DNA of 64,000 nucleotides from Escherichia coli (GTDB lineage: Bacteria > Pseudomonadota > Gammaproteobacteria > Enterobacterales > Enterobacteriaceae). Shown in pieces: positions 1-37,267 of this stretch; the first letter of the stretch is position 1, and each line of letters starts with the position of its first letter. The DNA is taken from assembly GCF_003334315.1 (NCBI RefSeq), contig NZ_QOWR01000023.1, one strand, 5' to 3'. The position numbers and the translations under genes are program-made. The notes below the pieces were generated by a model. It was not told the DNA's origin and searched no databases. It saw only the letters and a list, made by a program, of their open reading frames with translations.

Positions 1-149
1 GGTTGAGAAGCGGTGTAAGTGAACTGCAGTTGCCATGTTTTACGGCAGTGAGAGCAGAGATAGCGCTGATGTCCGGCAGTGCTTTTGCCGTTACGCACCA
101 CCCCGTCAGTAGCTGAACAGGAGGGACAGCTGATAGAAACAGAAGCCAC
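1..149 (-). CDS. insA: insA (IS1 transposition protein InsA), 5' part only, GTG start at 149 reading leftwards
   Basis: Minus-strand translation from GTG at 147-149 gives [23 protein letters not shown]..., the InsA N-terminus; ORF is cut by the window edge. Confidence 0.7.
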
Positions 150-204
150 TGGAGCACCTCAAAAACACCATCATACACTAAATCAGTAAGTTGGCAGCAT
201 CACC
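1..204 (-). mobile_element. IS1 left end (terminal inverted repeat plus 5' part of insA), truncated by the window edge; element continues to the left of coordinate 1
   Basis: Sequence 1-204 is the reverse complement of the canonical IS1 left end; the 23-bp terminal repeat GGTGATGCTGCCAACTTACTGAT (minus strand) ends at 204; one mismatch to the IS1 copy I remember. Confidence 0.85.
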
Positions 205-536
205 CGTTCATTTTCTGAGCCTGTAAAACATGTGGTGATATAGTCTGAGAGCATAAAAGTTGAGATTCTGTGTATCAAGTCCTGTCTTGGCACCGAATGA
301 ATATTGCTTACGAAGCCCCTTCATGCTTTCCTTGAGAACAATAATTTTATCTTTATGTATTTTTTATAATGATGTCAGATGATTGAAATGCTAAATTATA
401 TCTGAATCAACTTTTCCTTTGCTAAAGGTATAGAAATAACTGCAAGGCTGTATTTTGTAATTGCCAATTTAAAAATGTCAATTTGTTTTTAATTATGTTT
501 TTGTAATAAGTTTGAAGACACAAAAAAATAATATAA

Positions 537-570
537 TAACAAAAATCCTCCAGCCTTGTAGGCCAGAGGA
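537..570 (-). terminator. Putative rho-independent terminator downstream of the integrase gene
   Basis: Minus-strand hairpin CCTCTGGCC-tacaa-GGCTGGAGG (two G-U pairs) followed by ATTTTTGTT, 45 bp after the int stop. Confidence 0.4.
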
Positions 571-615
571 TAAAATACTTAATTGAGGAAAACATCAGGG
601 AAAAGTATTTCTGAC

Positions 616-1800
616 TTAACTTTCCCGGCTGGAGAGTGAATCAATGTAATCAGCGTACCATTGCATCATTTCACGGCGGCCATCGAGATACAGGGCATGA
701 TTATAGGTACCCCTGATGGAATTTTTATCCACATGAGCTAACTGCATTTCAATCCAGGCGGAGTTAAAGCCTTGTTCATGCAGAATTGTACTCATGGTGT
801 GTCTGAAACCATGCCCTGTGAGTCTTCCCTTATATCCAAGTAATTCAATTACTTGGTTAATGCTTTCCTTACTAATTGGTTTGCGGGGATCATTTCTACC
901 GATAAAGACTAGGGGATGATGTTTTGAGATTGGTTCAAGCTGCTTAAATAGCATAATAACCTGCTCAGAGAGCGGCACAATATGAGGTCGCTTCATCTTC
1001 ATTACTTCTGCCGGGATCTCCCACAATTTTGTCTCAAAATCGATATCTTCCCAGCGTGCAAAACGCAGTTCTTGTGTTCGTACGCCGGTTAACATAATGA
1101 TCTGAGTAGCTGTCTTAGTGATTATACTTCCGGTATAACCCGCCAGATCGTTGAGGAAGTGGGGAAGTTCATTAGCAGTAAGAAAGGGAAAATGTACTTT
1201 TTTCGGTGTAGCTAAAGCACTGGCAAGATCGGGGGCTGGGTTATAGTCTGCCCGGCCAGTAACAATTGCATAGCGGAACACCTCACCACAGCGCTGGCGT
1301 ACCTTGCGCATTTTCTCCAGAGCTCCACGTTTTTCCATTTTACGCAGTGCTTCCAGTAACTCCATTGGTTTGATTTCGGCAATAGGGCGCTTGCCAATGT
1401 AGGGAAAAATGTCTTTTTCAAAGGTATCAATGATTTCATCACGATAGCGTAATGACCACCGATCGGCTTTTGACTGGTGCCATTCGCGAGCAATAGCCTC
1501 GAACGTATTTTTCAGACTTATTTGCTGCGCGATTTTTTCTTCCTTTTTTGCCTCCCCTGGATCGCCTCCAGCAGCGAGGAGTTTCCTGGCTTCACTGCGT
1601 TTCTCGCGAGCATCGGCTAGCGTTACATCGGGGTATACGCCAATAGAAAGCATCTTTTCTTTACCAGCAAAGCGGTACTTCATGCGCCAGTATTTAGAAC
1701 CATTAGTGTTAATCAGTAGATACATACCGCCGCCATCAGCAAGCTTATAGGGTTTGTCTTTGGGTTTTGCGGTTTTCACTTTGATATCGGTTAATGCCAT
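616..1800 (-). CDS. int: P4-family tyrosine integrase (phage/island integrase), full length 394 aa
   Basis: ORF track 394 aa; N-terminus MALTDIKVKTAKPKDKPYKLADGGGMYL and C-terminal HGFRHT and LAHVDKNSIRGTYNHALY motifs (HxxR and catalytic Tyr) typical of P4-like integrases; sits directly next to the 3' end of a tRNA gene. Confidence 0.95.
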   Translation of the reverse strand: MALTDIKVKTAKPKDKPYKLADGGGMYLLINTNGSKYWRMKYRFAGKEKMLSIGVYPDVTLADAREKRSEARKLLAAGGDPGEAKKEEKIAQQISLKNTFEAIAREWHQSKADRWSLRYRDEIIDTFEKDIFPYIGKRPIAEIKPMELLEALRKMEKRGALEKMRKVRQRCGEVFRYAIVTGRADYNPAPDLASALATPKKVHFPFLTANELPHFLNDLAGYTGSIITKTATQIIMLTGVRTQELRFARWEDIDFETKLWEIPAEVMKMKRPHIVPLSEQVIMLFKQLEPISKHHPLVFIGRNDPRKPISKESINQVIELLGYKGRLTGHGFRHTMSTILHEQGFNSAWIEMQLAHVDKNSIRGTYNHALYLDGRREMMQWYADYIDSLSSRES

Positions 1801-2099
1801 GACATCCTCCGGCTTTTGATGAATTCATGTTCCTGAGGGGGATTTCTGCCAGTAACTAACCTGATACCCCCAATACACCCCTTGTATAACAAAGATGTTG
1901 TTAAAAGCCGTTGTTATGTATCACATTTTTCCTATTATGGGGGTGCTTGTATTTCAATAGGAAATAACACCCCCTAAAGTACCCCCAAAAGAAACTTGAT
2001 ACGGGGTGAAGTAGGTTGACCTCAGGATACAAATAAATACTGATATACAAGGGATTAGAAGAGATTTATTGACATTGGGAGAGTTCAGAAGAGGTAAAC

Positions 2100-2194
2100 T
2101 GGCGGAAGATCACAGGAGTCGAACCTGCCCGGGACCGCTGGCGGCCCCAACTGGATTTGAAGTCCAGCCGCCTCACCGGAGACGACGATCTTCC
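2100..2194 (-). tRNA. selC: tRNA-Sec (selenocysteine tRNA, selC), 95 nt including CCA
   Basis: Minus-strand sequence GGAAGATCGTCGTCTCCGGTGAGGCGGCTGGACTTCAAATCCAGTTGGGGCCGCCAGCGGTCCCGGGCAGGTTCGACTCCTGTGATCTTCCGCCA matches E. coli selC as I remember it; long extra arm and UCA anticodon. Confidence 0.97.
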
Positions 2195-2486
2195 GCGCCT
2201 CGATTGCTACATGGAGGCGGGGCGCATTATAGCTACTTCCTTGAGTTTCTACATCCCCCAGATCAGTTTTTTCCGCCTAATACACGCAGCGTATTATCAC
2301 GAAAGCATTATAGTTCATATAAAACCCATATTTTACAATGATATATGAGCGGAATTAACGCTACCACGATCACATAAAACAAGAATCATAAATTAATAAC
2401 CAGATATCGGAATATTCGCTCTCACAGGGATGGTTTACAAAATGCGTTATCGGTCTCAGCACCCCTATAGCATCAAGGAAAAGCAG

Positions 2487-3869
2487 ATGAAGAGTGAAGT
2501 GTTGTCCGTTAAAGAGAAAATTGGTTATGGCATGGGAGACGCCGCCAGCCACATTATTTTCGATAACGTAATGTTATATATGATGTTCTTTTATACCGAT
2601 ATTTTTGGCATTCCTGCCGGTTTTGTCGGAACCATGTTTTTGGTCGCTCGTGCACTGGATGCGATTTCCGATCCTTGCATGGGGTTGTTGGCCGATCGAA
2701 CGCGCTCTCGCTGGGGTAAATTTCGTCCGTGGGTACTGTTTGGCGCACTGCCATTCGGGATCGTCTGTGTACTGGCCTATAGCACTCCAGATCTCAGTAT
2801 GAACGGCAAAATGATCTATGCAGCAATTACTTACACCCTACTTACCTTACTTTATACCGTCGTCAATATCCCTTACTGCGCATTGGGTGGTGTAATCACC
2901 AATGACCCGACTCAGCGTATCTCGCTGCAATCCTGGCGTTTTGTGCTGGCGACCGCGGGAGGCATGCTTTCTACTGTTCTGATGATGCCACTGGTTAATT
3001 TAATTGGCGGTGATAATAAACCACTCGGTTTCCAGGGCGGTATCGCGGTCCTTTCCGTGGTGGCATTCATGATGCTGGCATTTTGTTTCTTCACCACTAA
3101 AGAACGCGTTGAAGCACCACCTACAACAACGTCTATGCGGGAAGATTTACGTGATATCTGGCAAAACGACCAGTGGCGGATTGTCGGTTTACTAACCATT
3201 TTCAATATCCTGGCGGTGTGCGTACGCGGTGGGGCGATGATGTATTACGTCACATGGATTTTGGGCACGCCGGAAGTGTTTGTCGCTTTTCTCACCACTT
3301 ATTGCGTGGGTAACCTGATTGGTTCCGCACTGGCAAAACCTCTGACCGACTGGAAATGTAAAGTCACTATCTTCTGGTGGACGAACGCCCTGCTGGCAGT
3401 GATTAGCCTCGCGATGTTCTTTGTTCCCATGCAGGCCAGCATCACTATGTTTGTCTTCATCTTCGTGATTGGTGTGTTGCATCAACTGGTGACACCTATC
3501 CAGTGGGTAATGATGTCCGATACCGTCGACTACGGCGAGTGGTGCAATGGTAAACGCCTGACCGGGATCAGTTTTGCTGGCACGCTGTTTGTGCTCAAAC
3601 TGGGGTTGGCCTTCGGCGGCGCTCTTATCGGCTGGATGCTGGCTTATGGCGGATATGATGCGGCAGAAAAAGCGCAGAACAGCGCCACGATTAGCATCAT
3701 TATTGCGCTATTCACGATTGTTCCGGCGATCTGTTATTTGCTGAGCGCGATTATCGCTAAACGCTACTACTCACTCACGACGCACAATCTGAAAACCGTT
3801 ATGGAACAGCTGGCTCAGGGTAAACGCCGTTGCCAGCAACAATTCACCTCTCAAGAAGTGCAGAACTAA
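2487..3869 (+). CDS. yicJ: GPH-family glycoside/xyloside:cation symporter YicJ
   Basis: ORF track (2430-3869); known N-terminus MKSEVLSVKEKIGYGMGD begins at ATG 2487; 12-TM-like hydrophobic profile; synteny with yicI. Confidence 0.9.
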   Translation: MKSEVLSVKEKIGYGMGDAASHIIFDNVMLYMMFFYTDIFGIPAGFVGTMFLVARALDAISDPCMGLLADRTRSRWGKFRPWVLFGALPFGIVCVLAYSTPDLSMNGKMIYAAITYTLLTLLYTVVNIPYCALGGVITNDPTQRISLQSWRFVLATAGGMLSTVLMMPLVNLIGGDNKPLGFQGGIAVLSVVAFMMLAFCFFTTKERVEAPPTTTSMREDLRDIWQNDQWRIVGLLTIFNILAVCVRGGAMMYYVTWILGTPEVFVAFLTTYCVGNLIGSALAKPLTDWKCKVTIFWWTNALLAVISLAMFFVPMQASITMFVFIFVIGVLHQLVTPIQWVMMSDTVDYGEWCNGKRLTGISFAGTLFVLKLGLAFGGALIGWMLAYGGYDAAEKAQNSATISIIIALFTIVPAICYLLSAIIAKRYYSLTTHNLKTVMEQLAQGKRRCQQQFTSQEVQN

Positions 3870-3878
3870 GGAACGGCA

Positions 3879-6197
3879 ATGAAAATTAGCGATGGAAACT
3901 GGTTGATTCAACCTGGCCTCAATTTGATTCACCCGCTTCAGGTGTTCGAGGTTGAACAGCAGGATAATGAAATGGTGGTCTATGCTGCCCCCCGTGATGT
4001 GCGTGAACGTACCTGGCAGCTTGATACGCCTTTATTTACGTTGCGCTTTTTCTCCCCACAGGAAGGTATTGTCGGTGTGCGGATTGAGCATTTTCAGGGG
4101 GCGCTGAATAACGGTCCTCATTATCCGCTCAATATTTTGCAGGACGTGAAGGTCACAATCGAAAACACAGAACGTTATGCTGAGTTTAAAAGTGGCAACT
4201 TAAGCGCGCGTGTCAGCAAAGGTGAGTTCTGGTCACTGGATTTTCTGCGCAACGGCGAACGTATTACCGGTAGTCAGGTGAAAAATAATGGCTACGTGCA
4301 GGACACGAATAATCAACGCAATTATATGTTTGAGCGGCTTGATCTTGGCGTTGGCGAAACAGTTTACGGTCTGGGAGAGCGCTTTACTGCCCTGGTGCGC
4401 AATGGCCAGACGGTAGAGACCTGGAACCGGGACGGCGGCACAAGTACTGAACAGGCGTATAAAAATATCCCGTTCTACATGACTAACCGTGGTTATGGGG
4501 TACTGGTCAATCATCCCCAGTGTGTCTCTTTTGAAGTGGGATCGGAGAAAGTCTCCAAAGTGCAGTTCAGCGTTGAGAGTGAATATCTCGAATACTTTGT
4601 TATCGACGGCCCGACGCCGAAAGCGGTACTTGATCGTTATACCCGCTTTACTGGTCGTCCGGCGCTGCCGCCCGCGTGGTCCTTCGGCCTGTGGCTAACC
4701 ACTTCATTTACCACCAACTACGACGAAGCGACGGTAAACAGCTTTATCGATGGTATGGCGGAACGCAATCTGCCGCTGCATGTTTTCCACTTTGACTGTT
4801 TCTGGATGAAAGCCTTCCAGTGGTGCGATTTTGAGTGGGACCCGCTGACTTTCCCTGACCCGGAAGGGATGATCCGCCGCCTGAAAGCGAAAGGACTGAA
4901 AATCTGCGTCTGGATTAACCCCTATATCGGTCAAAAATCCCCCGTCTTTAAAGAGTTACAAGAGAAAGGCTATTTACTCAAACGCCCGGACGGTTCGCTA
5001 TGGCAGTGGGATAAATGGCAGCCAGGTCTGGCGATTTATGACTTTACCAATCCGGATGCCTGCAAATGGTACGCCGACAAACTGAAAGGTCTGGTCGCGA
5101 TGGGCGTTGATTGCTTTAAGACCGACTTTGGCGAACGTATCCCAACTGATGTTCAGTGGTTTGACGGTTCCGATCCGCAGAAAATGCATAACCATTATGC
5201 GTACATCTACAACGAACTGGTGTGGAACGTGCTCAAGGACACCGTTGGTGAGGAAGAAGCTGTCTTGTTTGCCCGCTCGGCCTCCGTCGGTGCGCAGAAA
5301 TTCCCGGTACACTGGGGTGGCGATTGTTACGCTAACTACGAATCAATGGCGGAAAGCCTGCGCGGTGGTTTGTCTATTGGCCTTTCAGGTTTTGGCTTCT
5401 GGAGCCACGATATCGGCGGCTTTGAAAATACCGCTCCGGCGCACGTTTACAAACGCTGGTGCGCGTTTGGTTTGCTCTCCAGCCATAGCCGTTTACACGG
5501 TAGCAAATCTTATCGTGTGCCGTGGGCCTACGATGATGAGTCCTGTGATGTGGTGCGCTTCTTCACGCAACTGAAATGCCGCATGATGCCGTATCTGTAT
5601 CGTGAAGCTGCGCGTGCGAACGCGCGGGGTACGCCGATGATGCGGGCCATGATGATGGAGTTCCCGGACGATCCGGCTTGTGATTACCTTGACCGTCAAT
5701 ACATGTTAGGCGACAACGTGATGGTTGCGCCGGTGTTCACTGAAGCGGGCGATGTGCAGTTCTACCTGCCGGAAGGTCGCTGGACACACCTGTGGCACAA
5801 CGATGAACTCGACGGTAGTCGCTGGCATAAACAGCAGCACGGCTTCCTGAGTCTGCCCGTTTATGTGCGTGATAACACTCTACTGGCGCTGGGCAACAAC
5901 GATCAACGTCCCGATTACGTGTGGCACGAAGGCACGGCATTCCACCTCTTTAATCTGCAAGACGGGCATGAAGCCGTCTGTGAAGTACCCGCTGCTGACG
6001 GATCGGTGATCTTTACTTTAAAAGCAGCACGTACTGGCAACACGATTACTGTGACTGGTGCGGGCGAGGCGAAGAACTGGACACTGTGCCTGCGCAATGT
6101 TGTGAAAGTAAATGGTCTGCAAGACGGTTCGCAGGCTGAAAGTGAGCAGGGGCTGGTGGTGAAGCCTCAAGGGAATGCGCTGACAATTACGTTGTAA
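3879..6197 (+). CDS. yicI: alpha-xylosidase YicI (GH31 family)
   Basis: ORF track 772 aa, same length as K-12 YicI; GH31 motifs (WIDMNE-like region KTDFGERIP); 10 bp after yicJ. Confidence 0.92.
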
Positions 6198-6249
6198 TCT
6201 ATTGATGGAATGCCGGGTACGTCTGAGTCGTACCCGGCGAGATTGATGT

Positions 6250-7959
6250 TTACCGCACCGGCTCCGTCGATGTAACTTCACCGCTGGAAACGATGCCAGC
6301 ATTCATGGTTTGAGTCACTTGCTGCTTTGCGGCGTTCACGGCATGCAATTGCCCGCTAACCGTAGGTTTCAACGGGACATTGGCCTGAATATCGCCACTG
6401 GCGGTAAGCTGAATATTGCCGTCGCCAGTCAACGGTAATTCAGGCCATCCCCACTGTTGCAAAATATTCACCGGCACACCGCGTCCATTCAGGCTGATAT
6501 GTGTCTGACGTTGTGGCGTTTGTGAAACACTGGCGGTGGCTTCCAGAATGCCTTTTTCAGTAAATGCACTCAGTTCGCTGATATTCACCGTGCTGCTGTT
6601 GGCGGTCAGCGCCAGCGACGGGCGACGAACATCAACACGATTGAATGTCGCGGCGGCGGCATTCAGATTCGCCGAGCCACTCCAGACGCCCCATTTATGA
6701 TCGGTAACCAGCGTCAGGTTGGCACCGTAACCATCGAGCGCGGTGAGCTGCCACGGGAAGTCAGGGTCGATATCAATGATCAGATTGCGGCTGGCGCTAA
6801 ATCTCTTCAGTTGCAGGCTGTTTAACCAACCGGGTGTCGTTTCCATCCACAACTGTTGCCAGTTTTTCGGCAAGGTATATTCCAGCCCGGCAATTGCCGC
6901 ATCATCAAGGATCAACGTTTTCCCGTCACGCAGCCAGTTCCCTGACGTTCTGACCATACCCCCTTCCCAGCGGCTGGTGAACTGGCGCAGCGCTACGCCC
7001 TGCGGGGAAAATTCCGTGTTTATAATCGGGTCAAATAAATGCAGCGAACCATAAATGAACTCGCTAGCGTTCATCGACAGTTTGCCTTCCTGTGTCTGCC
7101 AGTCATCTTTACTGAAGGTCATGTTGCGCAAGCTGAGATCGAGGTCGGTCACCGCCCAGTCCGGACCTTGCAAACGAGCATCGATCACTTCCAGGCGACC
7201 AATCTGCAACGACGGGACAGAGCGTAATGGCGCAAAGAAGTCGGTTAGCGATTTTTCGCTTTGTAGACGTATATCCGCCATGCGCAGGTTTTCCACTTGC
7301 CAGCTGCCGTCGGCGTTACGCTGCGCGTTTCCGGTTAATGTCCCGCGGGCGATGTCGGCACCCAGGTTAGTCAGCGTAACGCGATCGTTATCAATACTGC
7401 CTTCAATCAGTACATTGGTGGCAGGAACATCATTGAGCGAAAGCGATCCGGCACTAAACTGAATCTGCGCCTTCGTACCCAGCACTTTACCGGCTTTTGG
7501 TGACCACGGAACTACGCCGCCATTTACCCGCTGCGCGCTCAGTTTCCATTCGCTATTCGGGCTATTAAACGCCATATCACGCAGTTGCAGACGATCGGCT
7601 TTGAACGGTAGCGGCGCGGTCTGGTCGGTGAGATTCAGCGTCCCGTTTTCCAGCAGGATGGTATCGACATGGCGTGGTTCGGTCAGTTGCCGACTGCTTA
7701 GCGCAATGTCGACACTTTTGGCCACCAGGGTCGCGGGCTGGCCATCACGACCAAACGTGACGTTCTCCAGCACGATATGAGATGGCGCGGAAAAACGGTG
7801 ATCCATCGCCCCGAAGGCCAGATGATAGTCGCTATTCTCGGAAACCCATGCGCTGATATGTTCTGCTCCCCAGCGGGTTTGCAGAAGAAAATAGAGGCCA
7901 GCGATCGCCACTAACAGAGCGATGAGAATGTAGAGAAGCAGCTTCCCAATAAATTTCAT
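6250..7959 (-). CDS. yicH: AsmA-family outer-membrane assembly protein YicH
   Basis: ORF track 577 aa; N-terminal signal/anchor MKFIGKLLLYILIALLVAIAGLYFLL; conserved position. Confidence 0.88.
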   Translation of the reverse strand: MKFIGKLLLYILIALLVAIAGLYFLLQTRWGAEHISAWVSENSDYHLAFGAMDHRFSAPSHIVLENVTFGRDGQPATLVAKSVDIALSSRQLTEPRHVDTILLENGTLNLTDQTAPLPFKADRLQLRDMAFNSPNSEWKLSAQRVNGGVVPWSPKAGKVLGTKAQIQFSAGSLSLNDVPATNVLIEGSIDNDRVTLTNLGADIARGTLTGNAQRNADGSWQVENLRMADIRLQSEKSLTDFFAPLRSVPSLQIGRLEVIDARLQGPDWAVTDLDLSLRNMTFSKDDWQTQEGKLSMNASEFIYGSLHLFDPIINTEFSPQGVALRQFTSRWEGGMVRTSGNWLRDGKTLILDDAAIAGLEYTLPKNWQQLWMETTPGWLNSLQLKRFSASRNLIIDIDPDFPWQLTALDGYGANLTLVTDHKWGVWSGSANLNAAAATFNRVDVRRPSLALTANSSTVNISELSAFTEKGILEATASVSQTPQRQTHISLNGRGVPVNILQQWGWPELPLTGDGNIQLTASGDIQANVPLKPTVSGQLHAVNAAKQQVTQTMNAGIVSSGEVTSTEPVR

Positions 7960-8079
7960 GGTCTTCCATCCCGTGAAATGCACATAAGGGAGTTATGCAC
8001 GATTTACGCGCAATCCTCAAGGCGGGAATGGTTAAAGAGGTGAGACTGCGGCGGTAATTATCTTACCGCCGCCAGTGAA

Positions 8080-9471
8080 TTACTGTTTTTCTGGTGGGAA
8101 AATCAGATTCAGCACGATGGCAGTAATACCGCCCGCGGCGATCCCGGAGGAGAGCAGGTTTTTCAGCCATTCAGGGGCAAACTGCAAAATCAGCGGCTGC
8201 TGAGACACGCCCAGACCAACCGCCAGCGACAGCGCGATAATCAGAATCGCCCGACGGTTCAGCGGCTCACGAGAAACGATACGCACACCGGAGGCGGCGA
8301 TGGTGCCAAACATTACAAGCGTTGCGCCGCCCAGAACCGGTTCTGGAATGTGTTGTACAAAACCGCTCACTGCCGGGAACAGACCCAGCACGATCAACAT
8401 CAGCGCGACGACAAAACCGACATAGCGGCTGGCAACACCAGTCAACTGGATCACTCCGTTGTTTTGCCCGAAGCAGGAGTTCGGGAAGGTGTTAAACACC
8501 GCCGAAACAAACGAGTTCAGGCCGTTTGCCAGCACGCCGCCTTTCAGGCGTTTCATGTACAGCGGACCGGACACTGGCTGTTCGGAAACGTCAGAGGTCG
8601 CCGTGATATCGCCAATGGTTTCCAGCGAAGTGATCATAAAGACCAGCATCAGCGGCAGCAGCAGACTCCATTCAATGCCAAGACCGTAATAGAGCGGCGT
8701 TGGCACCATAATCAGTTCTTGCGTCATAGGTTCGTTGCTTTCTGGCAACATGCCCATAAACCACGCCAGCGCATATCCGGCCGCCATCGCAATTACCAGT
8801 GAGGCCACGCGTAAGTAAGGGTTACGTTGACGGTTAAGCAGGATAATTAAGGCTAAGACCACGCCTGCCAGCAGCAGATTTTTCGGTGCGCCGAAGGTGT
8901 TATCGCTCATGGCTGCGTAACCGCCGCCAATGGACGTTAACCCAACCTGAATTAGCGACAGGCCGATAATCATCACCACAACGCCAGAAACCAGCGGCGT
9001 AATAATGCGGCGCGCCAGATGCAGAACGCGGGAGATCACCATCTCGGTGCAACTTGCCAGCATCAACGTGCCGAACAAAGCCGCCATCATGGTAGGAACA
9101 TCAGCACCACCGGTTTTCAGCGCGGTACCGCCCATAATCAGCGGGGCAACAAAGTTGAAGCTGGTGCCCTGAATAGACAACAGCCCGGAGCCAACCGGAC
9201 CCCAGGCCTTAATTTGAATAATCGATGCCACACCGGAGGCAAACAGCGACATACTAATAATGTGTTGCGTGTCTTGTGCCGGTAAACCCAGCGCCTGGCA
9301 GATTAATAGCGCTGGCGTGATCACCGCAACGAACATCGCCAGCAGATGCTGACAGGCGGCAAACAGGGTTTGAGGAAGCGGCGGACGATCTTCAAGACGG
9401 TAAATCAGTTCGCTGTTTTGAGTCTGCGCAACCGGTTGCGCATTTTCTGACTCGAGGGTGGAAACAGACAT
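8080..9471 (-). CDS. xanP: xanthine permease XanP (NCS2 family; formerly YicE)
   Basis: ORF track 466 aa; N-terminus [35 protein letters not shown]; polytopic membrane protein. Confidence 0.9.
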
Positions 9472-13211: not shown

Positions 13212-13901
13212 TTACCCTGCAGCCTGCATAGTAGCCCACCAGTCGGCATCAGCTTCGATCTCGCCTTGCTGATTGACGTGGGGATAAGGCAGGCCTTTGC
13301 GTTTTGCGACTTTCGCCAGCACCGGATAGCCGCCTTCAAACAACAGGCGTTGTTGCTCTGCTTCCGGCAACATGCTGTTTTCACGCAGGTACATGCCTGC
13401 ATTTTGCCGCTGACGCTGGGCTTCGTAAAGAATGAGGGCTGAGGCAACGGAAACATTCAGCGACTGCACCATGCCGATCATCGGAATGATGATGTCCTGA
13501 TCCGCCAGGGCCAATGCTTCCTGCGTGATGCCCGTTTTCTCCTGTCCCATCAAAATGCAGGTCGGGCGAGTGTAATCAATTTCGCGGAAATCGACAGCGT
13601 TATCAGAAAGATGGGTTGCCAGAATCTGCATGCCCTGGCCTTTGAGATGAGCGACGGCATCGCCAATGGTGCGGTGTGTTTTCACCTGTACCCAGCTGTT
13701 ACTACCCGCCGCTGCCGAAGCCATGGTGCGCATGCGGCTACCAGGCCAGACGGCGTGAACTTCATGTACGCCAACGGCATCTGCGGTACGAATAATCGCA
13801 GAAACGTTATGAGGTTTGTGGACCTGCTCCATGCAGACGGTCAGATCAGGCTGCCGCCTGGCGAGCATTTCGCAGATGCGTGCATAACGTGTTGGGTTCA
13901 T
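13212..13901 (-). CDS. trmH: tRNA (Gm18) 2'-O-methyltransferase TrmH (SpoU)
   Basis: ORF track 229 aa; SpoU-family methyltransferase; last gene of the spoT operon before recG. Confidence 0.93.
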   Translation of the reverse strand: MNPTRYARICEMLARRQPDLTVCMEQVHKPHNVSAIIRTADAVGVHEVHAVWPGSRMRTMASAAAGSNSWVQVKTHRTIGDAVAHLKGQGMQILATHLSDNAVDFREIDYTRPTCILMGQEKTGITQEALALADQDIIIPMIGMVQSLNVSVASALILYEAQRQRQNAGMYLRENSMLPEAEQQRLLFEGGYPVLAKVAKRKGLPYPHVNQQGEIEADADWWATMQAAG

Positions 13902-13907
13902 AAAACA

Positions 13908-16016
13908 TTAATTTCGGTTTCGGGTGACTTTAATCACGTCTGGCATCACGCGGATTTTGCGCATGATATTCGCCAGATGCACACGGTCACGAGCGGTCAG
14001 ACGAATAAAGGCGCTGTAGACGCGACCATCTTTCTCTTCCGTATTCAAACTTTGAATATTCGAAGTCGTGGTGTTAATTGCCGCCGTCAGGTTTGCCAGC
14101 GCACCCTGATGATTGAACATCTCCACCTTGATTTCGGTGATGAACTCCTGCGCCGTCTCTTTATCCCATTCCACAGCCATAAACTTCTCTGGCTCTTTCT
14201 GGTAGCCACGGATATTACGGCAGGATTCATGGTGGATCACCAGACCTTTACCGGGGCTGACGTGGGCGATAATCGGGTCGCCAGGAATAGGGCGGCAGCA
14301 TTTCGCAAAGGTGATCAGCACGCCATCGGCACCTTTAATGGGCAGATGTCCGTGGCTTTGGGTTGCCGGTGGAATGGAGGCGTCCCCATGTTGCAGATTT
14401 TTCGCGACCACCACGCTCATTGCGTTACCAAGTCCGATTTCTGCCAGCAGATCGTCAAGCGTTGCCAGCTTCATGCGATCCAGCTCGCGCTGAATATTTT
14501 CCTGCGGGATTTCATTCAGCTTACGGCTACCACCCAAAGCATGGTTGAGCAGACGACGGCCCAGGCTTACAGAATCATCACGCTTGAGGTTTTTCAGCAA
14601 CTGACGAATTTTGGCGCGCGCTTTCGAGCTAACGACAAAGTTCAGCCAAGCGGCATTCGGGCGAGCGCCCGGAGCGGTAATGATTTCAACGGTTTGACCG
14701 CTGGTAAGCGGCTGCGACAGCGGGTAAGGCTGGCGGTCAACGCGTGCGCCCACGCAGGCATGACCGATATCGGTATGCACTGCATAAGCGAAGTCGACGG
14801 GCGTTGCACCGGCAGGCAGCTCGACAATGCGCCCTTCCGGTGTGAAAACGTAAATCTCATCCGGGAAGAGATCGGATTTAACGCTCTCGATAAATTCAAA
14901 CGAACTACCGGCGCTCTGTTGCAGCTCCAGCAGGCTTTGCATCCAGCGCTGGGCGCGGATTTGTGCGGTAGTACTGGTTTCGCCGTGCTCTTTATAAGCC
15001 CAGTGCGCGGCAACACCCATCTCCGCCATCTGGTCCATATCTTCGGTACGGATCTGGACCTCAACCGGCACACCGTGCGGGCCGATCATCGAGGTGTGCA
15101 AAGACTGATAGCCGTTCGCTTTTGGAATGGCGATATAGTCTTTCACGCGGCCCGGACGCGGCTTGTACAGGCTGTGCATCTGGCCCAGCACGCGATAACA
15201 GGTGTCAGAATCATTGACGATCACGCGGAAAGCGTAGATGTCCATGATCGAGTGAAAACGCTGCTCTTTGAGCACCATTTTGCAGTAAATCGAATAAAGA
15301 TGCTTCTCGCGACCACTGACGCGGCACGGTATTCCCGCTTCCTGCAAACGCCCTTCGATTTCAGAAAGAATCTTCTGGATCATCTCTTTACGGTTGCCGC
15401 GCGCGGCTTTCACCACTTCTTTGATTACGCGATAACGGTTGGGATACAGCGCCTCAAAACCCAGCTCTTCGAGTTCGGTTTTAATGTGGTGGATACCTAA
15501 ACGGTGCGCCAGCGGGCTATAAATTTCGAGAGTTTCACGGGCGATGCGGCGACGTTTGTCCGGGCGAAGTGAGCCCAGCGTGCGCATGTTGTGGGTACGG
15601 TCGGCAAGTTTGATGAGGATGACGCGGATATCCTGCACCATCGCCATAATCATCTTGCGAAAGTTTTCGGCCTGCGCCTCTTTCTTATCGCGGAACTTGA
15701 GTTTATCAAGTTTCGACACCCCCTCTACCAGCTCGGCGACGCTTTTACCAAAAAGCTGTTCCATATCCTGGTAGGTGGCGGGAGTATCTTCAATCACGTC
15801 ATGCAGCAGCGCCGCCATCAGCGTTTCATAGTCGAGTTTCATCTCGGCCAGAATGCAGGCAACCGCTACCGGGTGCGTGATATAGGGTTCACCGCTTGAA
15901 CGTGTTTGCCCCTCGTGAGCATCACGTGCAACGAGATACGCCTGCCGCAGACGCTTGATTTGGTCTTCCGGCAGGTAGGTTTGAATCAGTTGATTCAGGC
16001 TTTCAAACAGATACAA
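13908..16016 (-). CDS. spoT: bifunctional (p)ppGpp synthetase/hydrolase SpoT
   Basis: ORF track 702 aa; HD-domain motif AALLHDVIEDT; TGS/ACT C-terminal region; rpoZ immediately upstream. Confidence 0.97.
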   Translation of the reverse strand: MYLFESLNQLIQTYLPEDQIKRLRQAYLVARDAHEGQTRSSGEPYITHPVAVACILAEMKLDYETLMAALLHDVIEDTPATYQDMEQLFGKSVAELVEGVSKLDKLKFRDKKEAQAENFRKMIMAMVQDIRVILIKLADRTHNMRTLGSLRPDKRRRIARETLEIYSPLAHRLGIHHIKTELEELGFEALYPNRYRVIKEVVKAARGNRKEMIQKILSEIEGRLQEAGIPCRVSGREKHLYSIYCKMVLKEQRFHSIMDIYAFRVIVNDSDTCYRVLGQMHSLYKPRPGRVKDYIAIPKANGYQSLHTSMIGPHGVPVEVQIRTEDMDQMAEMGVAAHWAYKEHGETSTTAQIRAQRWMQSLLELQQSAGSSFEFIESVKSDLFPDEIYVFTPEGRIVELPAGATPVDFAYAVHTDIGHACVGARVDRQPYPLSQPLTSGQTVEIITAPGARPNAAWLNFVVSSKARAKIRQLLKNLKRDDSVSLGRRLLNHALGGSRKLNEIPQENIQRELDRMKLATLDDLLAEIGLGNAMSVVVAKNLQHGDASIPPATQSHGHLPIKGADGVLITFAKCCRPIPGDPIIAHVSPGKGLVIHHESCRNIRGYQKEPEKFMAVEWDKETAQEFITEIKVEMFNHQGALANLTAAINTTTSNIQSLNTEEKDGRVYSAFIRLTARDRVHLANIMRKIRVMPDVIKVTRNRN

Positions 16017-21867: not shown

Positions 21868-22584
21868 ATGCGTCCAGCAGGCCGTAGCAATAATCAGGTG
21901 CGTCCCGTTACCCTGACTCGTAACTATACAAAACATGCAGAAGGCTCGGTGCTGGTCGAATTTGGCGATACCAAAGTGTTGTGTACCGCCTCTATTGAAG
22001 AAGGCGTGCCGCGCTTCCTGAAAGGTCAGGGCCAGGGCTGGATCACCGCAGAGTACGGCATGCTGCCACGTTCTACCCACACCCGTAACGCTCGTGAAGC
22101 GGCGAAAGGTAAGCAGAGTGGACGCACAATGGAAATCCAGCGTCTGATCGCCCGTGCTCTTCGCGCGGCAGTAGATTTGAAAGCGCTGGGTGAGTTCACC
22201 ATTACGCTGGACTGCGACGTGCTTCAGGCTGATGGTGGCACGCGTACCGCGTCGATTACGGGTGCCTGCGTGGCGCTGGCAGATGCGCTACAGAAGCTGG
22301 TGGAAAACGGCAAGCTGAAAACCAACCCGATGAAAGGGATGGTAGCCGCAGTTTCTGTCGGTATTGTAAACGGTGAAGCAATTTGCGATCTGGAATACGT
22401 TGAAGACTCAGCCGCAGAGACCGACATGAACGTAGTGATGACCGAAGACGGGCGCATCATTGAAGTGCAGGGGACGGCAGAAGGCGAGCCGTTCACCCAT
22501 GAAGAGCTACTCACCTTGTTGGCGCTGGCCCGAGGGGGAATCGAATCCATTGTAGCGACGCAGAAGGCGGCGCTGGCAAACTGA
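21868..22584 (+). CDS. rph: ribonuclease PH, full length (no K-12-type frameshift)
   Basis: ORF track; [41 protein letters not shown]; reading frame runs uninterrupted to a stop 6 bp before the pyrE attenuator hairpin. Confidence 0.95.
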
Positions 22585-30290: not shown

Positions 30291-31349
30291 GTGGATAAGC
30301 CATTTCGAAGAATTTTGCTCATTAAGATGCGTTTTCATGGGGATATGTTATTAACTACTCCCGTCATTAGTTCGCTGAAAAAAAATTACCCTGACGCAAA
30401 AATCGATGTGCTGCTTTATCAGGACACCATCCCGATCCTGTCTGAAAATCCAGAGATTAACGCGCTCTACGGCATAAAAAATAAAAAAGCAAAAGCCTCA
30501 GAAAAAATTGCCAACTTTTTTCATCTCATCAAGGTATTACGTGCCAATAAGTATGACCTTATCGTCAATCTCACCGATCAATGGATGGTTGCTATACTGG
30601 TTCGCTTATTAAATGCCCGTGTGAAAATTTCCCAGGATTATCATCATCGGCAGTCTGCTTTTTGGCGTAAAAGTTTCACCCATTTGGTGCCGTTGCAGGG
30701 TGGAAATGTGGTGGAAAGTAACTTATCCGTGCTGACCCCATTGGGAGTTGATTCGTTGGTGAAGCAGACAACCATGAGTTACCCGCCTGCAAGCTGGAAA
30801 CGTATGCGTCGCGAACTTGATCACGCTGGTGTTGGACAAAATTATGTGGTTATCCAACCTACGGCGCGGCAAATCTTCAAATGCTGGGACAACGCCAAGT
30901 TTTCCGCTGTGATTGATGCCTTACATGCTCGTGGTTATGAAGTTGTTCTGACGTCCGGCCCAGATAAAGACGATCTGGCCTGCGTCAATGAAATTGCGCA
31001 GGGATGCCAGACGCCACCAGTAACGGCGCTGGCTGGAAAGGTGACCTTCCCGGAACTTGGTGCGTTAATCGATCATGCGCAGCTGTTTATTGGCGTTGAT
31101 TCCGCACCGGCGCATATTGCCGCTGCAGTTAATACGCCGCTGATATCGCTGTTTGGTGCGACAGACCATATTTTCTGGCGTCCCTGGTCAAATAACATGA
31201 TTCAATTCTGGGCGGGAGATTACCGGGAAATGCCAACGCGCGATCAGCGTGACCGAAATGAGATGTATCTTTCGGTTATTCCGGCGGCAGATGTCATTGC
31301 TGCTGTCGATAAATTACTGCCCTCCTCCACGACAGGTACGTCGTTATGA
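30291..31349 (+). CDS. waaQ: LPS heptosyltransferase III WaaQ (GT9); the true start is probably the ATG at 30327 (MRFHGDMLL)
   Basis: ORF track; GT9 heptosyltransferase; first gene after the JUMPstart; stop overlaps the waaG start (ATGA). Confidence 0.9.
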   Translation: MDKPFRRILLIKMRFHGDMLLTTPVISSLKKNYPDAKIDVLLYQDTIPILSENPEINALYGIKNKKAKASEKIANFFHLIKVLRANKYDLIVNLTDQWMVAILVRLLNARVKISQDYHHRQSAFWRKSFTHLVPLQGGNVVESNLSVLTPLGVDSLVKQTTMSYPPASWKRMRRELDHAGVGQNYVVIQPTARQIFKCWDNAKFSAVIDALHARGYEVVLTSGPDKDDLACVNEIAQGCQTPPVTALAGKVTFPELGALIDHAQLFIGVDSAPAHIAAAVNTPLISLFGATDHIFWRPWSNNMIQFWAGDYREMPTRDQRDRNEMYLSVIPAADVIAAVDKLLPSSTTGTSL

Positions 31350-32470
31350 TCGTTGCTTTTTGTTTATATAAATATTTTCCCTTTGGCGGTTTGCAGCGTG
31401 ATTTTATGCGTATTGCTCAGACAGTCGCCGCCCGAGGTCATCATGTTCGGGTTTATACCCAGTCGTGGGAAGGCGAATGCCCTGATGTATTTGAACTGAT
31501 CAAAGTGCCGGTTAAATCGCATACCAATCACGGGCGCAATGCGGAGTATTTTGCCTGGGTGCAAAAACATTTACGCGAACATCCCGTCGATAAAGTCGTT
31601 GGATTCAACAAAATGCCGGGGCTGGACGTTTATTATGCCGCTGATGTTTGTTATGCCGAGAAAGTAGCGCAGGAAAAAGGCTTTTTCTATCGCCTGACGT
31701 CACGTTATCGCCATTATGCCGCCTTTGAGCGGGCAACCTTCGAACAGGGCAAGCCGACACAGCTGCTGATGCTGACAGATAAGCAAATCGCCGATTTCCA
31801 GAAACATTATCAGACTGAAGCGGAGCGTTTTCATATTCTGCCACCGGGGATTTATCCTGATCGTAAATATAGCCAGCAGCCAGCCAATAGCCGTGAAATC
31901 TTCCGTAAGAAGAATGGAATAACCGAACAACAATATTTATTGTTGCAGGTCGGTTCAGACTTCACGCGTAAAGGTGTCGATCGTTCCATTGAAGCACTTG
32001 CTTCGTTACCGGATTCGCTGCGCCACAACACATTGCTATATGTTGTTGGGCAGGATAAACCGCGAAAATTTGAGGCACTGGCAGAAAAACGCGGCGTGCG
32101 CAGTAATGTTCACTTCTTCTCGGGGCGCAACGATGTCTCGGAATTAATGGCGGCGGCGGATTTATTACTGCATCCTGCCTACCAGGAAGCGGCGGGAATT
32201 GTGCTGCTGGAAGCGATTACTGCAGGATTACCGGTACTAACAACTGCCGTTTGTGGCTATGCGCATTATATTGTCGACGCTAATTGCGGCGAGGCTATTG
32301 CTGAGCCATTCCGCCAGGAAACATTGAATGAGATTTTACGCAAAGCGTTAACGCAATCTTCATTGCGCCAGGCTTGGGCGGAAAATGCGCGACATTATGC
32401 TGATACACAAGATTTACACAGTCTGCCAGAGAAAGCGGCGGATATCATAACGGGTGGTCTGGATGGTTGA
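31346..32470 (+). CDS. waaG: LPS core glucosyltransferase I WaaG (GT4)
   Basis: ORF track 374 aa, same length as K-12 WaaG. Confidence 0.93.
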
Positions 32471-33260
32471 ACTTAAAGAGCCGTTTGCCACGTTATGGCG
32501 CGGCAAAGATCCTTTTGAGGAAGTTAAAACCTTGCAGGGTGAGGTATTTCGTGAACTGGAAACTCGCCGTACTCTGCGCTTTGAAATGGCGGGCAAAAGC
32601 TATTTTCTCAAATGGCATCGCGGCACGACCCTGAAAGAGGTAATCAAAAATTTACTCTCATTGCGGATGCCAGTATTAGGCGCTGACCGCGAATGGAATG
32701 CGATTCATCGACTGCGGGATGTCGGCGTTGATACTATGTATGGGGTGGCATTCGGCGAAAAAGGCATGAATCCGCTGACCAGAACCTCGTTTATTATTAC
32801 CGAAGATCTGACACCAACCATAAGTCTGGAAGATTACTGTGCTGACTGGGCGACCAACCCACCAGATGTTCGCGTAAAGCGTATGCTTATTAAGCGTGTC
32901 GCGACGATGGTGCGCGATATGCATGCTGCGGGCATTAATCACCGTGACTGTTATATCTGTCATTTCCTGCTGCACTTGCCTTTTTCCGGTAAGGAAGAGG
33001 AGTTAAAAATTTCGGTAATTGACCTGCACCGGGCGCAGCTTCGCACGCGCGTTCCACGTCGTTGGCGCGATAAAGATCTTATTGGACTTTATTTTTCTTC
33101 GATGAATATTGGCCTGACTCAGCGGGATATCTGGCGGTTTATGAAGGTGTATTTTGCCGCTCCGCTTAAAGACATTCTCAAGCAGGAACAAGGACTGCTG
33201 TTGCAAGCAGAAGCAAAAGCCACAAAAATCAGGGAAAGAACGATTCGAAAATCGTTGTAA
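32463..33260 (+). CDS. waaP: LPS core heptose(I) kinase WaaP
   Basis: ORF track; [21 protein letters not shown]; kinase motif [10 protein letters not shown]. Confidence 0.93.
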
Positions 33261-33302
33261 CCCGTAACTTATTTTTGCCAAAATTTTGGATACAGAATAA
33301 AT

Positions 33303-34310
33303 ATGTCTCAACTCAATGATAGTGACATCATCCTTTTTGAGTATAATTTTCATTATCAAAATATAAGATCTAAAAATACTCTTGATATAGCATTTGGTAT
33401 TGACAGAAATTTTCTTTTTGGATGTGGTGTAGCCATCGCATCTATTCTATTAAACAATAGAGAAATCTCTTGTGAATTTCATGTTTTCACAGATTATATC
33501 AGTGATAAAGACAAATTATATTTTTCTGATTTAGCAAAACAATATAATTCAAGAATTAATATTTATGTTATCAATTGTGATAAGCTGAAGTCATTACCAA
33601 GCACGAAAAACTGGACTTACGCAACATATTTTCGATTTATAATTGCAGATTATTTCTATCATAAACATGAAAAAATACTATATCTTGATGCAGATATTGC
33701 TTGCAAGGGTAGTATTAAAGAACTCTTAGATTATCAATTTTCTACTAATGAAATTGCCGCAGTTGTAGCTGAAAGAGATGTTGAATGGTGGCAAAATCGA
33801 GCCTCGGTATTAACTACACCACAGTTAGCTTCTGGATATTTCAATGCTGGTTTTTTACTGATAAATATTGATGAGTGGAATCTAAATAACATTTCGTCAA
33901 AAGCTATTGAAATGTTGCGTGACCCAGATTGGGTAAGTAAAATCACCCACCTTGATCAAGATGTACTGAATGTATTATTGAATGGTAAAGTGAAGTTTAT
34001 TTCGGAGAAATATAATACCCGATATAGTATTAACTATGAATTAAAAGACAAAGTTGATAATCCAGTCAATGATGACACCGTGTTTATACACTATGTGGGA
34101 CCTACAAAACCCTGGCATGAGTGGGCTGACTATCCGGTGTCACGTAGTTTTTTGATCGCCAAAGCAGCTTCTCCGTGGAGTAAAGAAGATTTACTTAAAC
34201 CTGTAAATAGCAATCAGTATCGGTATTGTGCAAAACATAAATTTAAACAAAAGCATTATATGGCAGGCATTTTTAATTATTTAAAGTATTATAAAGAAAA
34301 ATGCTTCTAA
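33303..34310 (+). CDS. waaI: outer-core GT8 glycosyltransferase, R3-type WaaI (UDP-galactose:(glucosyl)LPS alpha-1,3-galactosyltransferase)
   Basis: ORF track 335 aa; GT8 DxD motif LYLDADIA; AT-rich; position after waaP as in the R3 locus. Confidence 0.75.
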   Translation: MSQLNDSDIILFEYNFHYQNIRSKNTLDIAFGIDRNFLFGCGVAIASILLNNREISCEFHVFTDYISDKDKLYFSDLAKQYNSRINIYVINCDKLKSLPSTKNWTYATYFRFIIADYFYHKHEKILYLDADIACKGSIKELLDYQFSTNEIAAVVAERDVEWWQNRASVLTTPQLASGYFNAGFLLINIDEWNLNNISSKAIEMLRDPDWVSKITHLDQDVLNVLLNGKVKFISEKYNTRYSINYELKDKVDNPVNDDTVFIHYVGPTKPWHEWADYPVSRSFLIAKAASPWSKEDLLKPVNSNQYRYCAKHKFKQKHYMAGIFNYLKYYKEKCF

Positions 34311-34335
34311 AGATTTAAGGTTAAAATAATTCATT

Positions 34336-35043
34336 ATGATATATAATAAAACGATAAATGGGTTGAAAGTTTTCATAAAAGATAATGATCCCTTTTATGA
34401 GCAAGTTCTAAATGACTTTTTAACTTGCAGGGTTAAAACATTAAAAGTTTTTCGTTCTATTGATGATACTAAAGTCATTCTTATTGACACTGCTCGTGGA
34501 CCTCTTGTACTTAAAGTTTATGCGCCAAAGCATAAAATGACCGAACGTTTCTTAAAATCTTGCATAAAAAAAGATTATTATGAAAATTTAATTTATCAAA
34601 CCGATCGGGTACGTGGTGAAGGCATCCAATCAATTAATGACTATTTTTTGCTAGCTGAACGTAAAACATTAAATTTCGCTCATTATTATATTATGCTCAT
34701 TGAGTATATTGAAGGTGTCGGGTTAAATGAGTATTTGGAAATTTCTGAAGATCTGAAGGATCAATTATCAGAATCGATAAAAGAGTTGCATCAGCATGGA
34801 ATGGTGTCTGGCGATCCTCATAAAGGAAATTTTATAGTATCCGAAAAAGGTTTAAGACTAATTGACCTTTCAGGTAAAAAAACAACCGCTGTTTTAAAAG
34901 CAAAAGATCGCATTGATCTTGAACGGCACTATAATATAAAAAATGAATTGAAAGACTTTGGCTATACATATCTTATATTCAAAAAGAAAATTAAAAAAGT
35001 AATCAGGGATGTAAAAGTCAAACTAGGATTGAAGAGCAAATAA
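34336..35043 (+). CDS. waaY: LPS core heptose(II) kinase WaaY
   Basis: ORF track 235 aa; Kdo/WaaP-family kinase fold (GDPHKGNF); AT-rich. Confidence 0.8.
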   Translation: MIYNKTINGLKVFIKDNDPFYEQVLNDFLTCRVKTLKVFRSIDDTKVILIDTARGPLVLKVYAPKHKMTERFLKSCIKKDYYENLIYQTDRVRGEGIQSINDYFLLAERKTLNFAHYYIMLIEYIEGVGLNEYLEISEDLKDQLSESIKELHQHGMVSGDPHKGNFIVSEKGLRLIDLSGKKTTAVLKAKDRIDLERHYNIKNELKDFGYTYLIFKKKIKKVIRDVKVKLGLKSK

Positions 35044-35067
35044 TGATTATGATGAAGGGTAATTAAA

Positions 35068-36081: not shown

Positions 36082-36089
36082 TATACGAG

Positions 36090-37232: not shown

Positions 37233-37234
37233 AT

Positions 37235-37264
37235 AAAAAGGCCGCATTATGCAGCCTTTTTTAT
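37235..37264. terminator. bidirectional rho-independent terminator between convergent waaD and waaL
   Basis: AAAAAGGCCGCATTATGCAGCCTTTTTT: imperfect hairpin flanked by A-run and T-run. Confidence 0.6.
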
Positions 37265-37267
37265 TTT

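Follow-up and report, generated by a model that had tools for sequence, protein, structure and literature searches.

An intact P4/CP4-type integrase in what is probably the eroded tRNA-proximal end of a SHI-2-type island at selC of Escherichia coli

A stretch of 64,000 nt of Escherichia coli DNA (contig NZ_QOWR01000023.1; referred to below as the window) begins with the remains of a genomic island next to the tRNA-Sec gene selC. Positions 1 to 2123 very likely represent the attL, or tRNA-proximal, end of a CP4/P4-type island of the SHI-2/GIselC17584/1/E. coli B 'Selc*B' kind. The integrase encoded in the window is intact but probably stranded; to judge by its nearest relatives, the element would lack its distal att repeat, and site-specific excision is not expected. 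Each component of this element has already been described, as have its attachment site and likely cargo.

Composition of the island end

Positions 1 to 204 (minus strand) comprise the left end of an IS1 element. Both features that define IS1 were found, namely the terminal inverted repeat (at about 182 to 204) and the insA frame, which starts with a GTG at position 149 (minus strand) and runs leftwards past the window edge. Translation of positions 1 to 149 on the minus strand gave the N-terminus of InsA (49 aa, the first 49 codons). The segment was identical at 203 of 204 positions to the full 768-bp IS1 copies of the relatives, and IS1 lies at the identical site in the loci L001-L005, L008, L009, L013 and L016-L018. 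It interrupts a shiA-like TPR gene, of which the first 7 nt (ATGAACG; positions 205 to 211, minus strand) remain in the window. At the same junction, the loci without IS1 (L006, L007, L010 and L011) read on as ATGAACGATAGATTATGC..., the start of a 327- or 347-aa protein named 'ShiA-like protein' by the sources.

The AT-rich intergenic spacer between int and shiA (positions 212 to 615) is collinear with the heads of SHI-2-type and GIselC17584/1-like islands. The GC content was 30.9% for positions 205 to 615, 45.1% for int and 50.1% for the core, and that of the island part as a whole (205 to 2099) was 41.2%, compared with 50.1% for the core (2195 to 64,000). A 7-bp deletion (GAATCTC) between positions 358 and 359 of the spacer is private to the window: it was absent from all compared genomes, and an exact junction search of JGI metagenome contigs returned no match. 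Among the complete RefSeq E. coli genomes (5426 genomes), no exact match to window positions 1 to 2400 was found, and the best (99.7%) differed by this deletion. A terminator-like hairpin, with a 12-bp stem followed by TTTTTGTTATT, is located at 545 to 571 (minus strand), 45 nt past the int stop codon; it was taken from a consensus scan on the strength of its position, the promoter and terminator sites of the region being no more numerous than expected from shuffled sequence.

The island end is bordered by a complete selC gene (positions 2100 to 2194, minus strand; anticodon UCA), which was identified as tRNA-Sec by ARAGORN and by Rfam RF01852 (83.8 bits, E 7e-17) and is identical across all compared loci. 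Apart from tRNA-Sec, the Rfam search of positions 1 to 2500 at E <= 1 revealed no ncRNA. The four elements named in the sequence-only reading (IS1 end, AT-rich spacer, full-length integrase and selC) were all in place at the coordinates given, and none of them was a chance match.

Attachment site, arm region and integrase

Comparison of three junctions placed the island boundary exactly at the 3' end of the tRNA gene, between positions 2099 and 2100. The empty site of K-12 reads as the core followed by AAATGCCTCTCC..., the window junction as the core followed by island DNA, and the distal end of intact islands as island DNA followed by the core (minus one nt) and AAATGCCTCTCC... (L016). Together, the three sequences place the crossover within the 24-nt core, which is formed by the last 24 nt of selC (TTCGACTCCTGTGATCTTCCGCCA; positions 2100 to 2123, minus strand) and includes an exact 16-bp repeat (2108 to 2123). 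The 16-bp and 24-bp repeats match those published for selC islands (PMC6174562). A K-12 homology reaching 15 nt beyond the tRNA in BLAST was rejected, because inspection showed it to be partial similarity and the boundary to be the tRNA 3' end. Among the marks of a tRNA-associated island, insertion at the tRNA 3' end, a complete tRNA-Sec, an empty site in K-12 and a base composition unlike that of the core were present; a second direct repeat would lie beyond the window edge. The proposal that a selC-integrated island has its tRNA-proximal junction here was borne out, as was the statement that K-12 has no insertion at selC: past the 24-bp core, K-12 reads the same as the distal flank does in intact islands.

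Between the att core and int lies the arm region (positions 1801 to 2099), with five G5 motifs, at 1837, 1866, 1939, 1969 and 1981, including the sequence TTTGGGGGTACTTTAGGGGGT at 1969 to 1989 (reverse complement). The 64-kb window has 12 GGGGGT/ACCCCC hexamers, four of which are found in this 300-bp region, and the annotated attP arm repeats of P4 read T(T/C)GGGGGCA(T/C). The distance of 134 nt between the 21-nt repeat and the core equals that reported for GIselC17584/1, which has a second, distal copy (PMC6174562); a second distal copy was confirmed in L015 and L016. The G5 motifs are presumed to be arm-type binding sites of the integrase, and the int promoter presumably lies within the same region.

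The gene at positions 616 to 1800 (minus strand) encodes an intact P4/CP4-type tyrosine integrase of 394 aa. Three Pfam domains were detected: Arm-DNA-bind_3 (PF13356; residues 3 to 88, E 5.9e-30), Phage_int_M (PF22022; residues 100 to 194, E 8.4e-36) and Phage_integrase (PF00589; residues 206 to 370, E 1.1e-27). The protein aligned end to end and without gaps over its 394 aa with a 404-aa Citrobacter homologue (87% identity), and over residues 1 to 387 with phage P4 Int (45% identity, E 2e-115). The catalytic residues R241, H330, R333, H356 and Y366 aligned with those of P4 Int, and K270 may, from its position, be the beta-hairpin Lys. A full-length integrase with Arg, HxxR and Tyr motifs had been predicted, with truncation or a frameshift against P4-family proteins named as what would speak against it; the Pfam domains and both alignments agree on a full-length protein, and no frameshift was found. 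A protein search, which had been recommended for finding the island family, gave a P4/CP4-type assignment, the integrase being identical to that of the E. coli B selC element at 392 of 394 residues. Matches in the PDB were to CP4-like and CPS-53 integrase domains, those of the N-terminal domain being the CP4-like 3ju0 and 3jtz. The exact protein was found in 15,225 blocks of a public collection.

Known islands and genomes sharing the IS1 junction

Up to the IS1 junction at nt 7 of shiA, the window was collinear with and 99.2-99.4% identical to IS1-free GIselC17584/1-like islands, which in turn fit the published map of GIselC17584/1. The first 2.9 kb of GIselC17584/1, including shiA, is 99% identical to SHI-2 (PMC6174562). 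The SHI-2-type islands (SHI-2 of S. flexneri, GIselC17584/1 of STEC O91:H21 and EPI-I of APEC BEN2908) share with the window the insertion at the selC 3' end with its 16-bp (24-bp) repeat, the distance of 134 nt between core and 21-nt G5 repeat, and a collinear head (int, spacer and shiA start), the SHI-2 identity being taken from PMC6174562. In the window, however, shiA is cut to 7 nt by IS1; the relatives sharing the junction are without the aerobactin, restriction-modification, sulfatase and Tia-like genes, and the nearest relatives have lost the distal end. No iuc/iut genes were found in any relative read with the shared junction. On these sequence comparisons, the window element is to be regarded as a relative of the SHI-2 head module and not as SHI-2 itself.

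The selC element of E. coli B (REL606/BL21), listed as 'Selc*B (CP4)' by Archer et al. 2011 (PMC3032704), occupies the same attachment site as the window element and looks like a less-eroded form of the same island. It is about 20.9 kb long, retains both repeats and an intact setC, and contains an intact shiA, a LacI/MFS/GH31 sugar module, ssb and a CbtA module; unlike the window, it has no IS1 at the shiA start. Its int-spacer-shiA head and that of the window are about 99% identical. AatA of E. coli B and AatA of the window's relatives agree at 1161 of 1165 residues. Phage P4 resembles the window in its module of a three-domain Int, an int gene adjoining att and G5 arm repeats between core and int, and likewise targets a tRNA gene 3' end that is regenerated on integration. 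The target of P4 is leuX (tRNA-Leu), whereas that of the window is selC, the arm motif is GGGGGCA in P4 and GGGGGT in the window, and none of the relatives carries P4 genes for replication, immunity, Vis or capsid size. The selC hotspot is also used, with P4-like integrases and the 16-bp repeat, by the LEE of O157:H7, PAI I536, the Tia-PAI of ETEC H10407 and the LPA of STEC 4797/97 (PMC7545054, PMC6174562), whose cargo, known here from reviews, is unrelated to that of the window's relatives.

Of 5426 complete E. coli genomes, at least 157 share the IS1 junction, a junction-specific count that is a lower bound on account of the IS1-rich genomes. At least 80% of window positions 1 to 2400 is present at >=99% identity in 651 of the 5426 genomes, a figure that covers int and spacer at selC with or without IS1, since IS1 makes up only 8.5% of the query. 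In all 10 loci read with the shared junction, the next gene after IS1 was aatA, published as an autotransporter adhesin gene of APEC (PMC2944236).

Positions 2200 to 27,000 and 39,001 to 64,000 matched TOE3, BL12, 13C1065T, HS30-1 and others at 100.0% as reported. TOE3, BL12 and HS30-1, essentially the same as the window across the 50 kb of core DNA searched on its flank, contain no more of the island than int-IS1-aatA-IS1 (about 7.6 kb). They lack 214 nt of setC as well as the distal 24-bp direct repeat, so that integrase-mediated excision is unlikely in these genomes. In 13C1065T, just int and one IS1 remain: IS1 abuts int at window position 630/631, aatA and the last codons of the integrase are lost, and the distal repeat and 214 nt of setC are deleted here too.

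IS1 is a recombination hotspot. The two IS1 copies around aatA in the nearest relatives are inverted, with their left ends outward, and the orientation of the aatA segment is flipped in BL12 compared with TOE3 and HS30-1. Two setC breakpoints were obtained by BLAST: nt 215 was found in L001, L005, L013, L018 and L019, and the two-IS1 form L002 differs in being cut at nt 298. No second copy of the core (TTCGACTCCTGTGATC(T)TCCGCCA) was found in these six loci; the distal direct repeat is kept in L015, L016 and L017. A minority form (64EVA, 23CRST024; L016 and L017) has the same junction with a single IS1 and the distal repeat, and a long form with this junction runs on into IS3 and IS66 (L003, L004, L008 and L009). 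The window shares an A at position 78 with the two single-IS1 genomes (L016 and L017) and not with BL12 or HS30-1. No 9-bp target duplication was found around the junction IS1 (IS1A/IS1B), the flanks in L002 being AAATGAACG and GACACATCA. Such an absence is expected after IS1-mediated adjacent deletion or inversion; it is a sign that IS1 rearranged the site at a later stage and leaves the identification as IS1 unaffected.

Cargo, mobility and origin of the element

The sequence-only reading had expected novel or virulence-rich cargo to the left of the window and an island that might still be excisable. Neither expectation gained support: the frequency of the junction and the recurrence of aatA make novel cargo there seem unlikely, and the closest genomes hold a 7.6-kb remnant or less, with the distal repeat deleted and no excisionase annotated. 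Excisability in the window's own genome appears unlikely as well, although the distal repeat survives in the minority form that shares the junction. It is improbable that the window shows the edge of a sizeable, still mobile island with an intact distal repeat, virulence or novel cargo and integrase-mediated excision. The intact integrase, the preserved attL core and arm repeats, the occurrence of the identical junction in repeat-keeping (L016, L017) or longer islands (L003, L004, L008, L009) and the IS1 base at position 78 are consistent with such an island, but the gene adjoining IS1 in the loci read is the already described aatA, the genomes nearly identical in the flanking core searched carry the two-IS1 remnant or less, no excisionase gene was annotated in any form of the element read, and even the repeat-keeping forms amount to just 8-10 kb, made up of IS debris, aatA and what is left of a CbtA/YeeU toxin-antitoxin system.

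The inverted IS1 copies around aatA in the nearest relatives could also be taken as the arms of a composite transposon, IS1-aatA-IS1, that had transposed into the selC island and would be the relevant mobile unit, with the window IS1 as one arm. The aatA segment clearly moves, as it was found at 258 plasmid and 487 chromosomal places. Nevertheless, this explanation is very unlikely and was rejected: a 9-bp target duplication is lacking, the plasmid copies of aatA are flanked by IS1414, IS91 and IS3 and not by IS1, E. coli B holds aatA in the same island without IS1, and single-IS1 forms exist. Moreover, shiA nt 7 and setC nt 215, which flank the structure on the outside, adjoin each other in no empty site, which indicates that the structure arose by deletion and not by insertion. 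There is hardly any likelihood that the int-spacer segment is ancestral E. coli DNA lost by K-12. Its presence in 651 of the complete genomes shows that it is common, but the K-12 junction lies precisely in the 24-nt core and continues into the sequence found past the distal repeat of intact islands, the GC content is 41% against 50% for the core, integrases 84-90% identical were found in Salmonella, Citrobacter, Klebsiella, Serratia and Yersinia, and the same integrase heads islands with differing cargo.

The eroded island end, as the preferred explanation, would have arisen in several steps. As the geometry of the att sites and the example of P4 suggest, the integrase would have recombined attP with the last 24 nt of selC, an entry that would have regenerated the tRNA and placed int beside it, behind the arm region with its G5 repeats. 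IS1 then inserted into shiA, the gene at the front of the cargo, 7 nt from its start, as seen directly in the sequence. Subsequently, IS1-driven deletions and inversions, seen in the relatives, may have stripped most of the island. The window ends inside IS1, and its left side is known through relatives; going by the nearest relatives, one would expect to the left of coordinate 1 the remainder of IS1, a 4.2-kb aatA segment and a second, inverted IS1, followed by setC minus its first 214 nt.

The private 7-bp deletion, together with the absence of the window genome from the 5426 complete genomes searched, leaves a small chance that it is an unsampled variant in which IS1 joins the intact integrase module to unseen cargo or the distal repeat survives. 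If the repeat survives, the integrase could mobilise a small aatA element or capture incoming selC-targeting elements at the regenerated core.

In summary, a degraded SHI-2/CP4-type selC island, seen at its attL end, would be the fitting annotation for the region: the integrase gene is intact, IS1 has truncated shiA, and the cargo left is likely to be aatA. It would serve as an example of the stepwise erosion of a tRNA island in IS1-rich commensal and animal E. coli lineages, in which the integrase gene persists.

Anatomy of the selC junction

The island end at selC occupies window positions 1-2194. ARAGORN and Rfam identified a complete tRNA-Sec gene (selC) at 2100-2194 on the minus strand, and the sole long ORF between this gene and the window edge (616-1800, minus strand) encodes a P4/CP4-type integrase of 394 aa with the Pfam domains Arm-DNA-bind_3, Phage_int_M, and Phage_integrase. 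The left end of IS1, in reverse complement, was located at 1-204 (minus strand); its translation gives the InsA N-terminus, and it agreed at 203 of 204 positions with the full-length IS1 copies (768 bp) that relatives carry at this site. The spacer between IS1 and the integrase gene (205-615) is AT-rich, with a GC content of 30.9%, compared with 45.1% for int and 50.1% for the core chromosome. The order proposed in the sequence-only reading (IS1 end, AT-rich spacer, P4-type integrase, tRNA-Sec) was thus confirmed.

The attachment boundary was set by comparing three junctions, namely the empty site of K-12, the window, and the distal end of intact islands (locus L016). The K-12 junction reads ...TTCGACTCCTGTGATCTTCCGCCA|AAATGCCTCTCC..., in agreement with the earlier claim that K-12 has no insertion at selC. 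In the window, the 24 nt of K-12 (TTCGACTCCTGTGATCTTCCGCCA) are followed by island DNA (GTTTACCTCTTC...), and at the distal end of L016, island DNA passes into TTCGACTCCTGTGATC-TCCGCCA and then AAATGCCTCTCC... as in K-12. The att core, the 24-nt 3' end of selC, is therefore positioned at window 2100-2123, with island DNA from 2099, which agrees with the published 16-bp (24-bp) selC repeat (PMC6174562, PMC7545054).

Five G5 motifs were found between the att core and int, and of the 12 GGGGGT hexamers that the 64-kb window contains, 4 lie in this 300-bp interval. The motifs resemble the annotated attP arm repeats of phage P4, T(T/C)GGGGGCA(T/C). The G5 pair TTTGGGGGTACTTTAGGGGGT is located 134 nt from the att core; in the published island GIselC17584/1, this repeat is also exactly 134 nt from the core, with a second copy at the far end (PMC6174562), and the second copy was confirmed in L015 and L016. 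By analogy, the G5 motifs of the window are putative integrase-binding arm sites.

Alignment of the integrase to phage P4 Int covered residues 1-387 at 45% identity (E 2e-115), with the catalytic R241, H330/R333 (His-x-x-Arg), second His H356, and Tyr Y366 all matched. A gapless alignment with a 404-aa Citrobacter protein (87% identical) showed that only the non-conserved 10-residue tail of the latter is missing. These two alignments uphold the earlier view of an intact enzyme with its Arg, HxxR, and Tyr motifs, and the protein search together with Pfam placed it in the P4/CP4-type family. Homologues of 84-90% identity occur in Salmonella, Klebsiella, Citrobacter, Serratia, Yersinia, and others. 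The public collection lists the exact protein in 15,225 blocks, an identical integrase stands at the head of several islands, and that of the E. coli B selC element is identical at 392 of 394 residues. Judged from these comparisons, the integrase is neither truncated nor rare. In summary, window 1-2194 is an attL junction at which the tRNA is regenerated, the P4-type integrase is intact and accompanied by its arm region, and the first cargo gene is cut short by IS1.

Island family and cargo

Four island loci lacking IS1 (L006, L007, L010, and L011) were collinear with the window as far as the IS1 junction (99.2-99.4%), past which they read ATGAACGATAGA..., where a gene for a TPR protein begins that the sources call 'ShiA-like'; IS1 in the window lies 7 nt into shiA. 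Their genes encode, in order, a sulfatase-family enzyme, a Tia-like outer membrane protein, and a restriction-modification system, and their coordinates agree with the map published for GIselC17584/1, an island whose first 2.9 kb matches SHI-2 (shiA included) at 99% and EPI-I at 96.8% (PMC6174562). The E. coli B member of the family, named 'Selc*B (CP4)' in the literature (Archer et al. 2011, PMC3032704), spans 20.9 kb with both repeats present, in the order selC, int, shiA-like, LacI/MFS/GH31 module, ssb, IS debris, aatA, IS30, CbtA module, repeat, rhuM fragment, and intact setC.

The exact IS1-shiA junction was detected in at least 157 of 5426 complete genomes, and no 9-bp target duplication was found around this IS1 copy in the relatives checked. 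The next gene after the junction was a 3,498-bp autotransporter gene in 10 of 10 loci read, and its protein was identical to that of E. coli B at 1161 of 1165 residues. By this match the gene is the published aatA (APEC autotransporter adhesin A). The expectation of novel cargo to the left was not supported by the relatives. Dai et al. 2010 named the AatA homologues of REL606 and BL21 and noted IS-rich flanks (PMC2944236). The aatA segment was also found in 258 places on plasmids, where its neighbours are IS1414, IS91, and IS3 and not IS1. The gene is common on large plasmids of poultry and human isolates, for example pTB-nb2 (5133-8630). All of these elements are already known from earlier descriptions: the insertion site and its repeat, the family of the integrase, the int-shiA head, aatA, and the selC element of E. 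coli B.

Core chromosome and flanks

Comparison with the BL12 annotation showed that the remainder of the window, from yicJ to mtlA, is ordinary core and includes the waa cluster. Window yicJ (2487-3869) is intact; strain HS30-1 (L001 22494-24652) carries an extra IS1 inside this gene. In the waa (LPS core) cluster (30291-38476), rfaQ, waaG, rfaP, waaO, rfaY, a GT8 gene, and a GlcNAc transferase gene are followed by rfaL according to the BL12 annotation, which places no waaS, waaB, or waaZ there; the core type is therefore other than that of K-12, perhaps R3-like. For rph (21868-22584), the annotation of the essentially identical BL12 sequence gives a full-length RNase PH of 238 aa; the K-12 MG1655 gene has the rph-1 frameshift. 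A 629-aa ORF (13611-15500, plus strand) runs antisense to spoT (13908-16016, minus strand) and most likely represents a shadow ORF, not a gene.

Just past the empty selC att site of K-12 lies the pseudogene yicT (L012 6426-6557), which corresponds to a RefSeq RhuM-family fragment elsewhere (L015 9383-9544 and L016 2662-2823, outside the window). The rhuM gene belongs to the Salmonella selC island SPI-3, and the yicT/RhuM fragment may have been left behind by an older island at selC.

Arrangement and mobility of the island

Four forms share the junction. Form (i) has a single IS1, keeps the distal repeat, and measures about 8-10 kb (L016 and L017). In form (ii), two inverted IS1 copies surround a 4,182-bp aatA segment and the distal repeat is gone, with the distal flank gene setC cut at nt 215 (L001, L005, L013, and L018) or nt 298 (L002). 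Form (iii) is longer and runs into IS3 and IS66. In form (iv), represented by 13C1065T, a single IS1 is all that separates setC nt 215 from int, which it meets at window 630/631; aatA and the spacer are lost together with the final codons of the integrase gene, and int is annotated there (L019 10562-12499) as a 416-aa integrase variant with its end running into IS1. The aatA segment of BL12 (L013 9255-13436) is in the opposite orientation to that of HS30-1 (L001 15255-19436) and TOE3 (L018), which looks like a flip via recombination between the IS1 copies.

The window edge falls inside IS1, and the arrangement to its left is outside the window. Window 2200-27000 and 39001-64000 showed 100.0% identity, as reported, to TOE3, BL12, GS04, 13C1065T, HS30-1, and others, a lineage that is well sampled, and all its inspected members have form (ii) or (iv). 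Position 78, within IS1, speaks weakly against these forms: it is A in the window and G in HS30-1 and BL12, and among the genomes compared A otherwise occurred only in the form (i) strains 64EVA and 23CRST024, a weak indication because the IS is multicopy and only one base is concerned. On these sequence comparisons, form (ii) is the probable arrangement of the window. The window also lacks 7 bp (GAATCTC) at 358/359 in the int-shiA spacer, which is present in every compared genome, IS1-free islands included. No exact match to the deleted version was found in JGI metagenome contigs or the 5426 complete E. coli genomes. The deletion, located upstream of the destroyed shiA, is probably neutral.

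The suggestion that the island may still be excisable was not supported by the relatives: the distal repeat is gone in form (ii), and none of the four forms has an annotated excisionase gene. Site-specific integration would have brought the island to selC, followed by its stepwise erosion by IS1. The distal att site would now be missing in the lineage of the window, which would leave the integrase stranded.
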